In this document: in pieces, positions 1-4,963 of the stretch
Numbering within the stretch: position 1 is the stretch's first letter
How the letters are laid out: each line of letters opens with the position of its first letter
From: an uncultured Lutibacter sp.
Lineage (GTDB): Bacteria > Bacteroidota > Bacteroidia > Flavobacteriales > Flavobacteriaceae
DNA length: 64,000 nt
Direction: 5' to 3'
Assembly (NCBI GenBank): GCA_964342295.1
Contig: CAYFFC010000001.1
Span: 72,453 to 136,452, forward strand
Program-made: the position numbers and the translations under genes
The notes under the pieces: model-generated
The model's input: the letters and a program-made list of their open reading frames with translations, nothing else
Database searches by the model: none
Told to the model about the DNA's origin: nothing

Positions 1-2
1 GT

Positions 3-1241
3 CGTGAACCTGCTTGCGTTACTATTTGCCCGGAACATGCCATTATTGCCGGAGATATGCATAATCCAAGCACTGAAATTTCTCAGTTACTGGCACGACA
101 GGCTGTGAAAGTTCGAAAACCGGAAAAAGGAACAAACCCAAATTTATTCTACATTGATGCCGATGAAGCCTCATTGAATCCAGAAGCTACAGACAAATCC
201 GGTCCAAGTTTATGGAATTCTCAAGCTCGAGGTGTAGGTCATTATGCAAAAGCAGCTGAAAAAATGCTACACACTAATGATGATGTTGATTTGCTTCAGT
301 TGACCATAGATAACGAATTGCAAGCAGCTTATCAGAAAAAAGAAACTGAAAATCCAAACTATATTGATGTGCTAACCGGTAAAGCCCGCAGGGTGTATGA
401 TACACCTGATAAAGGAATTTTATGGGGCTGGGAAGTTTCTGCCTATGTATTTACAAAGGCTATAGCTGCTGGGGCTTTCTTAATTACATTTTTAGCCATT
501 GTTTTAGGGTATGAAGTATCTAATATGGCAAAGTTATGGGCTGCAGGTATCTCATTGTCATTTTTGGCATTAACGGGATTATTTTTAGTAATGGATTTAG
601 ACAGGCCGGACAGATTTTTAAATGTATTACTGCGTCCTCAATGGAATTCATGGTTGGTTAAAGGGGGTTATACCATTTCAATATTTGGTTTATTGGTAAC
701 TGTTTGGGGAGCAAATACCATATTTAACCTAAACATTCCTGAAATGCCGTTACTGTGGTTTACCGCTATTTTTGCAGTATTGCTGGCAATTTATACTGCA
801 TTTTTATTTGCACAAGCCAAAGGGCGCGATTTTTGGCAAAGCCCGTCACTACCAATGCATATGTTAGTACATAGCGTTATGGCAGGAGCGGCGATATTTA
901 TAGTTGTATCACCTTTTTTTGGAACCGAAAATTGGATTACACTAATTTCAAATACCATTATTACTGCAATAATAATTAATGTGGTTACACTACTGACTGA
1001 ACTGTCAATTACACACCCAACAACTGCTGCTAAAAAGGTGGTTAACATGATTGTAAAAGGAAAATATGCAACCTTATTTTGGTTTGGAACTGTTTTAATA
1101 GGAAATGTGCTTCCACTGATATTGTTATTTACAATTAACTCAGGTTGGATAGCAGTTGTTTCAGGAGTATTTGTTTTGTTAGGAATTATAACCACCGAAA
1201 AAATATGGGTAGAAGCGCCACAGCGCGTACCGCTTGCATAA
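3..1241 (+). CDS. Fused 4Fe-4S subunit (PsrB/NrfC-like) + NrfD/PsrC membrane anchor of a molybdoenzyme complex; 5' end lies outside the window
   Basis: The frame is open from base 3 (REPACVTICPEHAIIAGD-MHNP), giving the PACVxxCP last-cluster motif, then EKGTNPNLFYI (NrfC C-terminus), then WGWEVSAYVF, DLDRPDRF and about 8 hydrophobic helices (NrfD). Confidence 0.85.
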   Translation, partial: REPACVTICPEHAIIAGDMHNPSTEISQLLARQAVKVRKPEKGTNPNLFYIDADEASLNPEATDKSGPSLWNSQARGVGHYAKAAEKMLHTNDDVDLLQLTIDNELQAAYQKKETENPNYIDVLTGKARRVYDTPDKGILWGWEVSAYVFTKAIAAGAFLITFLAIVLGYEVSNMAKLWAAGISLSFLALTGLFLVMDLDRPDRFLNVLLRPQWNSWLVKGGYTISIFGLLVTVWGANTIFNLNIPEMPLLWFTAIFAVLLAIYTAFLFAQAKGRDFWQSPSLPMHMLVHSVMAGAAIFIVVSPFFGTENWITLISNTIITAIIINVVTLLTELSITHPTTAAKKVVNMIVKGKYATLFWFGTVLIGNVLPLILLFTINSGWIAVVSGVFVLLGIITTEKIWVEAPQRVPLA

Positions 1242-1325: not shown

Positions 1326-4205
1326 ATGGGATATAAAAAACCATCATTTATAGAAAATTTAGCTGAAAAAATTGGCCTTATACCAAATTTGCATAAAGAA
1401 GGGTATCAAAAATTTGATAAAGATATGCGTCATTTTTCTGATGAAGAAGTCGCTAAAATGTATGAAAATTTCCCTCCACCTGAAAAATGGGATAATTGGG
1501 TTGAATACAATCCGAAGGTTTGGCCAAAAAAAGAGAAAAAAACCTATCAAATTGTTCCAACAACGTGCTTTAATTGTGAAAGTGCCTGTGGTTTAACAGC
1601 ATTTATTGATAAAGAAACTCAGGAAGTTAAAAAGTTTGAAGGGAATCCGTATCACCCTGGTAGTAGGGGAAGAAATTGTGCAAAAGGCCCTGCAACAATC
1701 AATCAAATTACAGACCCTGATCGTATTTTATTTCCTTTAAAAAGAAAGGGTAAACGCGGAGAAGGTGAATGGGAACGTGTTACTTGGGATGAGGCTTTAG
1801 ACACTATTGCAGCACGAATTAGAAAGGCTATTAAAGAAGACAGGCACAATGAAATTGCGTATCATGTTGGCCGTCCGGGACACGAAGGTTTTATGAATTG
1901 GGTTTTGCCTGCTTGGGGAATTGATGGCCATAATTCGCATACAAATATTTGCTCATCAGGTGCCCGTTTTGGGTATAATTTATGGTATGGCTACGACCGC
2001 CCTTCACCAGATCATTCTGAGGCTAAATTTATATTATTGGTTTCAGCTCATCTTGAATCGGGACATTATTTTAATCCCCATGCGCAGCGAATTATTGAAG
2101 GTAAAATGAAAGGAGCCAAATTGGCAACTATGGACCCGCGCTTATCTAACACAGCTTCTATGTCCGATTATTGGTTACCAACTTACCCCGGTACTGAAGC
2201 TGCAGTATTGCTAGCAATGGCGCTCATCATTCTAAAAGAGGGCTTATACAATAAAAAGTACTTAAAAAATTGGACAAACTGGCAACAATATTTAAAAGCT
2301 AAACATAGTGATAAAAAGGTAACATTCAGTAATTACATAGCAGCTATGATTGAGGAGTATAAGGGATTTACACCTGAATTTGCTGAAAAAGAATCTGGCG
2401 TAAAAGCCGCTACTATTATTGAAATTGCCCGAAAAATAGGAGAAGCCGGTGAACGTTTTGCTTCGCACAATTGGCGGGCTGCAGGAGCTTCCAATCTTGG
2501 TGGATGGGCAGTTGCACGTTGTTTACATTTTTTAACGGTTTTAACAGGAGCTGTAGGTGCCAAAGGAGGCACTTCGCCTAATTCTTGGAATAAATTTAAA
2601 CCTCAAGTTCCAAATCCACCAAAACCTCAAAAGAAGTGGAACGAATTGCATTTTCCTAATGAATATCCGTTGGCATTTTTTGAAATGAGTCAGTTATTGC
2701 CTCACATGCTCAAGGAAGGCCGTGGAAAAATGGATGTGTATTTTTCAAGGGTATTTAACCCGGTATGGACCTACCCTGATGGATTTACTTGGATGGAAAT
2801 GTTTAGCGATGAAACAAAATTTGGATTACATACTGCTTTAACTCCTACATGGAACGAAACAGCTTTTTATGCCGATTTTGTACTGCCAATGGGATTGGCA
2901 TCTGAGCGTCATGATTTAAATAGTTATGCAACGCACAGTGGTACCTGGGTGGCATTTCGCCAACCTGTTTTGCGAGAAGCGGCACGCAGAAATGGAAAAC
3001 CGGTAAATTTAACTTATGAAGCCAATCCGGGTGAAGTTTGGGAAGAAGATGAATTTTGGATTGAACTCAGTTGGAGAATTGACCCTGATGGAAGTATGGG
3101 CATCCGTAAACATTTTGAATCGCCTTACAGACCAGGAGAGAAAATTACCATTGATGAATATTATCAATATATTTTTGAAAGAGTTAAAGGACTTCCTGAA
3201 GCTGCTAAAAAAGAAGGATTGACCGAGTTACAGTACATGCAAAAATATGGGGCTTTTGAAGTAGAAAAGCATGGGTACAAGAAAAATGAAACTAAACTAA
3301 CAAAAGAACAACTAGAAGGTTCTGAGGTTGACGACGAAACAGATGTTATTTACAAAAACGGTAAAGCTATTGGGGTAATGATTGAAGGAAAGGCTTGCAT
3401 TGGTTTTCCTACACCATCCAGAAAAAACGAGTTTTATTCACAAACCATGGTTGATTGGAAATGGCCTGAATATGCAATTCCAACTTATATAAAAAGTCAT
3501 ATTCATCAAGAAAAACTTGATAAATCAAAAGGAGAATATGTATTGGTTCCAACATTCAGGTTACCTACCTTAATTCATTCACGGTCAGGAAATGCTAAAT
3601 GGTTGGTTGAAATTTCAAATAGAAACCCTATTTGGATGCACCCTGATGATGCGGCAAAATGGGGATTTAAAACTGGTGATTTGGTTAAAATGAATACCGA
3701 TATAGGTTATTTTATAGATAAAGTTTGGGTTACACAAAGTATGAAACCCGGAGTTGTAGCCTGTTCACACCATATTGGTCGTTGGCGCAGACCACAGGAT
3801 AAAATTGGAAACAGATGGGCTACCAATACAGTTAATATTGAAAGTAATGGAAAAGGTGGTTGGAAAATGAATACCGTAGCCGGAATTAAGCCTTTTGAAT
3901 CGGGCGATAAAGATTCAAAACGTATTTTTTGGAAAGATGGTGGTGTACATCAAAATATTACCCATGCCGTACATCCTGACCCAATTAGCGGAATGCACTG
4001 CTGGCATCAGCGTGTGAGAATTGAAAAGCCAAATGAAAATGAAAAATACGGTGATATTTTTGTCGACACCAATAAGTCTCATGAGGTTTATAAAGAGTGG
4101 CTTGCTATGGCTCGTCCCGCTCCGGGGCCTAATGGCGAACGCAGACCGCTTTGGTTTAAGCGTGCGTTTAAACCGGATGTATCTACGTATTATTTTGACA
4201 AATAA
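1326..4205 (+). CDS. Molybdopterin oxidoreductase catalytic subunit (DMSO reductase superfamily; Psr/Arr/Ttr/Soe-type), no Tat signal
   Basis: CFNCESAC...RNCAKG Fe-S motif, RVTWDEAL, DPR, HNSHTNICS putative Mo-ligand loop, C-terminal molybdopterin-binding domain (IWMHPDDA); 959 aa. Confidence 0.9.
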   Translation: MGYKKPSFIENLAEKIGLIPNLHKEGYQKFDKDMRHFSDEEVAKMYENFPPPEKWDNWVEYNPKVWPKKEKKTYQIVPTTCFNCESACGLTAFIDKETQEVKKFEGNPYHPGSRGRNCAKGPATINQITDPDRILFPLKRKGKRGEGEWERVTWDEALDTIAARIRKAIKEDRHNEIAYHVGRPGHEGFMNWVLPAWGIDGHNSHTNICSSGARFGYNLWYGYDRPSPDHSEAKFILLVSAHLESGHYFNPHAQRIIEGKMKGAKLATMDPRLSNTASMSDYWLPTYPGTEAAVLLAMALIILKEGLYNKKYLKNWTNWQQYLKAKHSDKKVTFSNYIAAMIEEYKGFTPEFAEKESGVKAATIIEIARKIGEAGERFASHNWRAAGASNLGGWAVARCLHFLTVLTGAVGAKGGTSPNSWNKFKPQVPNPPKPQKKWNELHFPNEYPLAFFEMSQLLPHMLKEGRGKMDVYFSRVFNPVWTYPDGFTWMEMFSDETKFGLHTALTPTWNETAFYADFVLPMGLASERHDLNSYATHSGTWVAFRQPVLREAARRNGKPVNLTYEANPGEVWEEDEFWIELSWRIDPDGSMGIRKHFESPYRPGEKITIDEYYQYIFERVKGLPEAAKKEGLTELQYMQKYGAFEVEKHGYKKNETKLTKEQLEGSEVDDETDVIYKNGKAIGVMIEGKACIGFPTPSRKNEFYSQTMVDWKWPEYAIPTYIKSHIHQEKLDKSKGEYVLVPTFRLPTLIHSRSGNAKWLVEISNRNPIWMHPDDAAKWGFKTGDLVKMNTDIGYFIDKVWVTQSMKPGVVACSHHIGRWRRPQDKIGNRWATNTVNIESNGKGGWKMNTVAGIKPFESGDKDSKRIFWKDGGVHQNITHAVHPDPISGMHCWHQRVRIEKPNENEKYGDIFVDTNKSHEVYKEWLAMARPAPGPNGERRPLWFKRAFKPDVSTYYFDK

Positions 4206-4435: not shown

Positions 4436-4963
4436 TTAGAGTCTTCCTAAAACTTCTCCAAATTCTTTTACTTTCTGCCAATTTGTGTATTCAATTTTAG
4501 CGTTTGAATTAGTAGGTCCCTTGGTCATCCACATTATAAATTGTATCATAATCCTATCAAAAAAAGGATATTTTTTATAATCTAGTTTCCCTGCAAAAAC
4601 TTCAACAACATTCGGTTTCCAATCAATATTTTTGAAAAATTTTATTACATATGGATTTGTTGTTGGGGTGTTTTTTTCGGGTTTTCTTGCCACTAAATTA
4701 ACCGAAAAAAAAGCAGTTTTTACCTTATTTAATTCATCTTTATTTTTTTCTATATATGCTATTAATTTTTCTTGGTGCAAACCGTACCTTACACTAGAGG
4801 CTAAAATAATTTTATCAAATTTTGATATATTACCACTAAATTTTTCAACAGCAAATAATTCAACTTTATGGTTACTGCTAGTTAGCACTTCTTTTATTTC
4901 GTTACAAATTTTAAGTGTTTGCCCATCAACAGTTGCATATAAAATTCCAATTGTATCACCCAT
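4436..4963 (-). CDS. hemG: Menaquinone-dependent protoporphyrinogen IX oxidase (flavodoxin fold)
   Basis: ILYATVDGQTLKI, ASSVRYG, FFSVNLVARKPEK, FAGKLDY, YTNW motifs. Confidence 0.9.
   Translation of the reverse strand: MGDTIGILYATVDGQTLKICNEIKEVLTSSNHKVELFAVEKFSGNISKFDKIILASSVRYGLHQEKLIAYIEKNKDELNKVKTAFFSVNLVARKPEKNTPTTNPYVIKFFKNIDWKPNVVEVFAGKLDYKKYPFFDRIMIQFIMWMTKGPTNSNAKIEYTNWQKVKEFGEVLGRL

Follow-up and report, generated by a model that had tools for sequence, protein, structure and literature searches.

A two-gene locus at the start of a 64,000-nucleotide stretch of an uncultured Lutibacter sp. genome (contig CAYFFC010000001.1; this whole stretch, called the window below, is G000:C1:72453-136452 in whole-genome coordinates) encodes a molybdenum bis(pyranopterin guanine dinucleotide) (Mo-bisPGD) subunit, A, directly preceded by a fused iron-sulfur and NrfD membrane subunit, BC. 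We propose, with a probability of roughly 0.7, that BC-A is a sulfite:menaquinone oxidoreductase catalysing the last step of a Crp-controlled regulon for sulfide and thiosulfate oxidation. Judged by sequence, BC-A belongs to the two-gene family known as PSRLC3 (polysulfide-reductase-like complex 3) or psrBC-psrA, and the locus is an ordinary member of that family, which was described between 2008 and 2014. What is new here is an operator shared with other operons, the alternation of A with AprA in green sulfur bacteria, and the existence of cultured carriers (Lutibacter).

Subunit A is the product, 959 residues long, of a single uninterrupted open reading frame (ORF) in which Pfam recognises the domains Molybdop_Fe4S4 (residues 75-127), Molybdopterin (133-537) and Molydop_binding (743-835). 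Its features, in window coordinates, are the following.

1326..4205, plus strand: catalytic Mo-bisPGD subunit A, 959 aa, without twin-arginine (Tat) signal (ORF, Pfam, NCBIfam, alignments, AlphaFold2 model)
1344..1394, plus strand: N-terminal segment SFIENLAEKIGLIPNLH, aa 7-23 (comparison of N-termini, family consensus; helix at 8-15 in the model)
1470..1508, plus strand: FPPPEKWDNWVEY extension preceding the FS0 cluster, aa 49-61 (family alignment)
1566..1679, plus strand: FS0 [4Fe-4S] ligands C81, C84 and C88 (CFNCESAC; C81-x2-C84-x3-C88) and C118 (GRNCAKG), invariant in the family alignment
1950..1952, plus strand: Cys209, predicted molybdenum ligand in the HNSHTNICS loop (loop alignment; invariant in the family)

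A preliminary description of this DNA had recognised a 959-residue Mo-bisPGD subunit with an FS0 cluster and a cysteine in the HNSHTNICS loop, and the ORF, Pfam and alignments bear this out. In HMMER alignments Cys209 stands opposite the cysteine-bearing loops of PsrA (2vpw) and ArrA (6cz7), whose cysteines we take to be molybdenum ligands in those structures. The same description had seen no Tat leader on A and an N-terminal extension in its place, and both observations stand. Neither an RR motif nor a hydrophobic signal stretch was found by motif inspection of residues 1-75 (signal-peptide calls for A and BC were made by motif and charge analysis), and the FPPPEKWDNWVEY extension is a conserved hallmark of the family, with P50 invariant and W55, D56, W58 and E60 nearly invariant; the Tat-bearing relatives P0129 and P0163 have one too, after their signal peptide. 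Further upstream, the first ~23 residues of A make up a conserved amphipathic segment with the consensus SFIExxAEKLGLIPxLH. Segments resembling SFIENLAEKIGLIPNLH occur in family members from Flavobacteriaceae, green sulfur bacteria, Saprospiraceae, Calditrichota, Pirellulaceae and haloarchaea, and this part of A might be where the BC subunit or a maturation factor docks.

The AlphaFold2 model of A (mean predicted local distance difference test score, pLDDT, 75.5) has its top structural matches in ArrA, PcrA, FdhH, acetylene hydratase and PsrA, at 15-20% identity (~20% over the structural alignment for PsrA). As modelled, A is confirmed to have the Mo-bisPGD fold and has no close relative among solved structures. 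By sequence, its best solved match is PsrA 2vpw (E 8.5e-37).

The gene upstream of A is present in the window in part.

1..1241, plus strand: 3' part (residues ~126-538) of the fused FeS (B)-NrfD (C) gene (ORF, translation, Pfam)

A separate B subunit had been expected at this place; instead, B and C form a single protein of 538 aa, whose gene starts ~376 nt before the window, at G000:C1:72077 (= L004:11625), and ends 84 nt before the start of A. A four-cluster ferredoxin domain (residues ~1-190; Fer4_11 at 52-144) is followed by a linker and then by the NrfD domain (264-523). The best NCBIfam match of the B part is TtrB, at 195 bits, under the cutoff. The protein begins MKYGFIIDNRKCIGCHAC, and neither a Tat signal nor a hydrophobic leader was found at this N-terminus, which answers the check on a Tat-exported B subunit: the B domain has no such signal and is fused ahead of an N-in NrfD anchor. 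Hydropathy indicates eight hydrophobic helices in the anchor. Lysine and arginine cluster in the N-terminal domain, the tail and loops 2-3, 4-5 and 6-7, the remaining loops holding 0 or 1, so that both ends of BC are predicted to be cytoplasmic (N-in/C-in) by the positive-inside rule. A and the ferredoxin domain are predicted to sit on the cytoplasmic face of this inverted NrfD anchor; an inverted membrane orientation has been proposed for SoeC (PMC8076601). A search aimed at unfused forms recovered B or C relatives that were for the most part fragmentary; one genuine B subunit, of 256 aa, came from SAR324, and none had an informative name.

Relatives of A at 75-91% identity are numerous and bear generic names only, and the nearest 50%-identity representative found by exhaustive search is 55% identical to A. 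Next to the family come Tat-bearing proteins of ~1100 aa (P0129, P0163), which keep the PPFExW motif after the signal peptide. Another sister group consists of Tat-less or Tat-bearing paralogues (P0125, P0126, P0130, P0151) that lost the molybdenum-ligand cysteine, P0126 being also without the FS0 motif; these paralogues are possibly non-catalytic. The 150 best representatives of that search include no further full-length Tat-less protein of ~960 aa, which hints at a distant relationship of A to SoeA. Scanning species genomes recovered at least 596 relatives of A. The best 80 of these belong to Myxococcota, Chloroflexota, Rhodothermales, Saprospiraceae, Acidobacteriota, Planctomycetota, Gemmatimonadota, Calditrichota, Methylomirabilota and Binatia; none of the 80 is from Allochromatium, Aquifex or Ruegeria. 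Plasmid records of Thermomicrobium roseum, Rhodococcus jostii RHA1 and several haloarchaea hold relatives 52-59% identical to A; this plasmid search recovered no SoeABC, and besides the family only two Tat-bearing or distant systems (Azoarcus, Sulfurovum). In the T. roseum protein, a 'Tat' flag was traced to a chance RR without hydrophobic stretch and rejected.

In the maximum-likelihood tree, the family is a tight clade of 31 rows with a support of 98 in the Shimodaira-Hasegawa-like approximate likelihood ratio test (SH-aLRT). The query nests within Flavobacteriaceae, then with other Bacteroidia, then with Calditrichota and Pirellulaceae, then with green sulfur bacteria and a haloarchaeon; it shares with the green sulfur bacterial copies a 15-row clade (SH-aLRT 99) inside the family clade. 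The Tat-bearing Psr/Phs-like representatives form a clade apart. The preliminary description had named placement inside a characterised clade as refuting its reading. A falls in no biochemically characterised clade here, and none of the NCBIfam equivalogs comes near its cutoff for A (dmsA_ynfE, 209 vs 778 bits; PhsA, 184.5 vs 694; ArrA, 119 vs 1600; TtrA, 99.5 vs 1750).

The surroundings of the pair were counted over 85 family loci. A fused BC gene is found directly upstream of A in 70 of them (median gap ~28 nt), a gene of the SulP sulfate-permease family (Sulfate_transp + STAS) adjoins in 28, and the two YeeE/YedE halves adjoin in 9 and 6, respectively. Some Saprospiraceae loci have an SQR-like flavoprotein (SQR: sulfide:quinone oxidoreductase) and a DUF1641 protein nearby, and Chloroflexota loci have a CCG/4Fe-4S protein and a lipoate-protein ligase (LplA), as in sHdr systems. 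The gene order is DsrE, TusA, BC, A, Mrp on plasmid pRHL3 of R. jostii RHA1 (L123), flanked by three metallo-beta-lactamase (MBL) hydrolases and ArsR regulators; it is CsoR-like regulator, BC, A in T. roseum, and BC, A, Mrp on a Natrinema halophilum plasmid (L124). The Mrp/NBP35-family ATPase gene directly after A in RHA1 and Natrinema may encode a dedicated Fe-S delivery factor for the complex.

In our sample of the green sulfur phylum, one family (f24) carries A, in 41 of 87 genomes and at 66-69% identity to the query. Three of the f24 genomes encode the FMO protein and are thereby recognised as green sulfur bacteria; one FMO-positive genome has the gene order BC, A, TauE/SafE-family permease. 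Co-occurrence was counted over the 94 genomes of the green sulfur family that are at least 90% complete, 45 with A, 20 with AprA and 70 with DsrA, as follows.

DsrA-positive genomes (70): A only 43, AprA only 17, both 1, neither 9
DsrA-negative genomes (24): A only 1, AprA only 2, both 0, neither 21

The A-only and AprA-only states are both found inside each of the three genera. Where A and dsrA share a contig (25 pairs), the distance between them is 4-6 kb in 18. BC-A thus appears to be present where sulfite is made in the cytoplasm and the AprAB route is missing.

The 20 kb around the A gene were also compared in 11 related genomes (L107-L117), at least seven of which have the contiguous order Crp, YeeEa, YeeEb, BC, A, SulP1, SulP2 and an MBL-rhodanese fusion. 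By its domain architecture, this fusion is a persulfide dioxygenase-sulfurtransferase (PDO-rhodanese) of the CstB/Blh kind. In the present genome SulP1, SulP2 and PDO-rhodanese are on another contig, next to ruvB (L106, G000:C48:2712-7742), and hemG follows A; the cluster is therefore split or rearranged here. A common promoter design nevertheless links five operons, namely a 16-bp palindrome TGTRAY-N4-RTYACA, exactly 20 nt, and then a Bacteroidetes -7 box. The five operators, each made of these three parts, and the SQR and Crp genes are located as follows.

G000:C1:63376-63419: operator before yeeE/yedE
G000:C1:72006-72049 (L004:11554-11597), ~0.4 kb ahead of the window: operator before BC-A
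L106:7769-7812 (C48:7812), minus strand: operator before SulP1-SulP2
L106:4171-4214 (C48:4214), minus strand: operator before PDO-rhodanese
L119:2376-2419 (C9:39375): operator before the SQR-TusE/DsrC-DsrE2 operon
L119:2474-4539 (G000:C9): type III SQR, then TusE/DsrC-family protein, then DsrE2-like carrier
L004:2288-2920 (Crp1) and L004:3979-4611 (Crp2): Crp-family regulators flanking the yeeE pair

The -7 box of the SQR operon reads TAAAGTTG, not TAnnTTTG. The exact palindrome has 18 sites in the genome against 2-7 in ten order-2 Markov simulations, and a loose form of the composite motif has 8 against 0-3. Like sites precede BC and the SulP2 or PDO gene in most relatives, and the five promoters look like a Crp-family sulfide-oxidation regulon. 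The SQR is of type III (NF049943, 647 bits vs a cutoff of 525). Its operon, with TusE/DsrC and DsrE2, sits in a heterotrophic flavobacterium with no Dsr system in view.

Orthologues of Crp1 stand beside the cluster in five relatives and have in common a cysteine in a GDTC motif of the effector domain, mostly with one or two more cysteines within 13 residues, which Crp2 does not have. The Crp1 cysteines are a lead for a thiol- or persulfide-based sensor; we know of no Crp-family sulfide sensor described so far. A wider proposal, which we put forward as speculative, is that PSRLC3-type BC-A is distinct from SoeABC as a lineage and serves heterotrophs of more than 10 phyla, haloarchaea included, as their main cytoplasmic sulfite dehydrogenase, and that a Crp-family regulator, sensing sulfide or persulfide via the conserved cysteines of its effector domain, would switch it on in Flavobacteriaceae along with SQR, PDO, YeeE/YedE and SulP.

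Within Flavobacteriaceae, the A gene turned up in 14 of the 300 genera sampled. The preliminary description had considered such an enzyme unusual for this family; it is indeed a minority trait, but no oddity. BC-A is wired to an O2-dependent persulfide dioxygenase and so fits an aerobic or microaerobic lifestyle. The PDO-rhodanese was compared over Flavobacteriaceae genomes, G123, G103, G284 and G058 among them. All 14 carriers share a distinct subclade, at least 78% identical to the copy here, whereas the copies of most other genomes are at ~58-61%; the module therefore appears to travel together.

In the pathway that we propose, type III SQR would convert sulfide to persulfide, from which PDO-rhodanese would make sulfite and thiosulfate in the cytoplasm, YeeE/YedE moving a sulfur anion. 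BC-A would oxidise the sulfite to sulfate at its Mo-bisPGD, with Cys209 as ligand, and the electrons, leaving by FS0, would cross the four B-domain clusters to reach menaquinone bound in the NrfD domain at its cytoplasmic side. The menaquinol would be oxidised by the respiratory chain, a COX1/COX2-type oxidase and NapA being encoded in the genome, and SulP permeases would export the sulfate. The potentials of the sulfate/sulfite couple (~-516 mV) and of menaquinone (~-74 mV) make sulfite oxidation by menaquinone strongly downhill. As both half-reactions would take place on the cytoplasmic side, the reaction could be electrogenic only if the NrfD module pumped protons. No sulfite oxidase of the SUOX/SorA type was found in the genome.

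The context supports the cytoplasm-facing sulfur-oxyanion enzyme suggested earlier from the letters alone. The substrate had then been called unknown, which holds insofar as it is still deduced indirectly, and does not hold for the kind of enzyme, whose clade already has the name PSRLC3/psrBC-psrA. Several points nevertheless weigh against sulfite oxidation. No published assay of any PSRLC3-family member was found in the literature searched, and by sequence A stands nearest, among solved or named proteins, to reductases (PsrA/PhsA, ArrA). Family members are annotated as polysulfide reductase in two papers (PMC3906813, PMC5219744), and thiosulfate did not stimulate the growth of Lutibacter profundi (PMC5219744). 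PDO-rhodanese is found in 285 of the 300 Flavobacteriaceae genera, most of them without BC-A, so that BC-A is not required for the PDO pathway, and the assimilatory sulfite reductase, encoded in this genome among other assimilatory sulfate-reduction genes, could remove sulfite too. The Fisher values for the green sulfur family (6e-9 for A vs AprA, 2e-7 for A vs DsrA) overstate the support, related genomes not being independent. Finally, the direction of transport by SulP and YeeE is an assumption of the proposed pathway.

The kinship with reductases leads to a different enzyme, a cytoplasm-facing polysulfide, persulfide or thiosulfate reductase of the Psr/Phs kind, in which menaquinol would reduce sulfane sulfur inside the cell. 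A indeed has its best named matches in PhsA (184 bits) and PsrA 2vpw (E 8.5e-37), and Tat-bearing Psr/Phs-like proteins are its sister groups in the tree. Carriers of sulfane sulfur (TusA, DsrE, rhodanese) are encoded nearby in several genomes, and the name Psr is used both by Wright et al. (PMC3906813) and in the L. profundi genome paper (PMC5219744). All matches are however far under the family cutoffs, and a futile cycle would arise if such a reductase shared a regulon with SQR and persulfide dioxygenase. The adjacency of SulP or TauE, like the near-exclusive alternation with AprA among Dsr-positive green sulfur bacteria, fits sulfite, not polysulfide, and thiosulfate reduction by menaquinol is strongly endergonic according to textbook potentials. 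We consequently regard such a reductase as unlikely.

It is less probable again that BC-A, with a quinone as acceptor, oxidises another cytoplasmic sulfur anion, such as thiosulfate imported by YeeE/YedE. The YeeE/YedE pair, with its weak TsuA-like matches, stands directly before BC in Flavobacteriaceae and has the same operator, and PDO-rhodanese fusions are reported to make thiosulfate (PMC12934615). Across the family, YeeE/YedE is beside the pair in only 9/85 loci, vs 28/85 for SulP, and the green sulfur link is to TauE and to Dsr, which makes sulfite. To our knowledge, moreover, there is no Mo-bisPGD thiosulfate dehydrogenase. The Mo-bisPGD fold being common to enzymes of many specificities, a non-sulfur substrate (arsenate or arsenite, selenate, nitrate, an organic compound) was also considered, the sulfur genes around BC-A being then coincidental. 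ArrA and PcrA are the best structural matches of the model, and YedE-type proteins have been linked to selenium too. Yet the position of the Arr/Arx (R/K)GRY motif reads VGRPGH in A, no equivalog model reaches its cutoff, and the sulfur context recurs both in unrelated phyla and through the shared operator, which makes this the most improbable of the three alternatives. Oxidation of sulfite remains the reading that we prefer.

PSRLC3 was named in green sulfur bacteria (Frigaard & Bryant 2008; Gregersen et al. 2011, as cited in PMC9324843 and PMC5473276); these two later papers present it as a two-gene complex inferred to oxidise sulfite. It resembles BC-A in having a fused FeS-NrfD gene upstream of a Tat-less catalytic gene, the FMO-positive copies being 66-69% identical over the full length, and in its presumed role in cytoplasmic sulfite oxidation. 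In contrast to PSRLC3, which has dsr genes and a TauE gene beside it, the presumed source of sulfite here is PDO-rhodanese, and the neighbours are YeeE/YedE, SulP and Crp. The psrBC-psrA operon of the Marine Group A (SAR406) fosmid FPPP_13C3 and its relatives (Wright et al. 2014, PMC3906813) shares with our locus the BC fusion, the BC-before-A order, the absence of a Tat signal and the molybdenum cofactor genes next door; the carriers named in that study are green sulfur bacteria, Caldilinea and haloarchaea. Its interpretation as a polysulfide reductase differs from ours, as the present context argues for sulfite oxidation. The L. profundi genome paper likewise lists a pair of the BC-A type as 'polysulfide reductase', beside SQR and a sulfate permease (PMC5219744).

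SoeABC, known from Allochromatium vinosum and Aquifex aeolicus (Dahl et al. 2013; Boughanemi et al. 2020, as cited in PMC8076601), is a sulfite:quinone oxidoreductase. BC-A resembles it in its Tat-less catalytic subunit with FS0, in its heme-less NrfD anchor, predicted to be inverted in the membrane, in its predicted cytoplasm-facing position and in the proposed chemistry from sulfite to quinone, a likeness drawn from published descriptions of SoeABC. SoeABC is made of three separate polypeptides, with the gene order soeA-soeB-soeC, whereas B and C are fused here and the order is BC-A. SoeC has been catalogued in Proteobacteria, Clostridia and Aquificae only, with none in Bacteroidota (PMC8076601).

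PsrABC (T. thermophilus, 2vpw; Wolinella succinogenes) and PhsABC (Salmonella) have in common with BC-A a Mo-bisPGD subunit with FS0 and a cysteine ligand, a four-cluster ferredoxin and an 8-helix NrfD. They are however Tat-exported, periplasm-facing, unfused, quinol-oxidising reductases, whereas A has no Tat signal, a PhsA score under the cutoff and a separate clade in the tree. A also falls outside ArrA/ArxA, as it has no Tat signal, scores under the ArrA cutoff and reads VGRPGH where ArrA reads RGRYSH in the alignment; the (R/K)GRY substrate motif of Arr/Arx was reportedly described by Glasser et al. in 2018. DmsA/YnfE and TtrA are set apart by scores under both cutoffs.

Sulfite is toxic, and the oxidation of sulfide, thiosulfate or organosulfonates within the cell necessarily passes through it. 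Surveys of sulfur-cycle genes usually count SoeABC, SorAB/SUOX and AprAB-Sat. With no SoeC catalogued in Bacteroidota, a two-gene family of many heterotrophs may therefore go uncounted or be labelled 'polysulfide reductase'. If BC-A does transfer electrons from sulfite to quinone, the Flavobacteriaceae that carry it can take sulfide fully to sulfate, with the final step supplying electrons to respiration. This would not be a new kind of enzyme; the cultured carriers (Lutibacter) and the compact five-operon regulon are suited to testing the long-standing PSRLC3 prediction.

As to the remaining surroundings of the locus, two Crp-family genes, the split YeeE/YedE-type transporter pair and molybdenum cofactor genes are found directly upstream of BC. 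The preliminary description had proposed a search for moa, moe and mob genes, and a complete run is present, in the order moaA, moeA, moaC, mobB-mobA, a DUF1835 gene, moeB, moaE and moaD. The relatives examined have no such DUF1835 gene in their molybdenum cofactor clusters; here it lies between mobBA and moeB (L004:8702-9535). A frameshift in moeA was considered and rejected, the apparent split into ORFs of 136 and 316 aa being due to a 100-N scaffold gap at L004:5893-5992. A second run of exactly 100 N (L004:11311-11410) lies between moaD and the BC promoter, with a short identical sequence on both sides, and both runs are probably scaffold joins. Scanning the operon for sigma-70 promoters and terminators gave nothing over background. 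No chaperone of the TorD/NarJ family was found in this 95%-complete genome, which also encodes NapA and the alpha subunit of an NAD-type formate dehydrogenase. The gene next to A is the following.

4436-4963, minus strand: HemG-type menaquinone-dependent protoporphyrinogen oxidase (191 bits vs a cutoff of 142)

This gene fits a menaquinone-based membrane. It is followed by ctaA, gldD, gldE, ssb and mutY.

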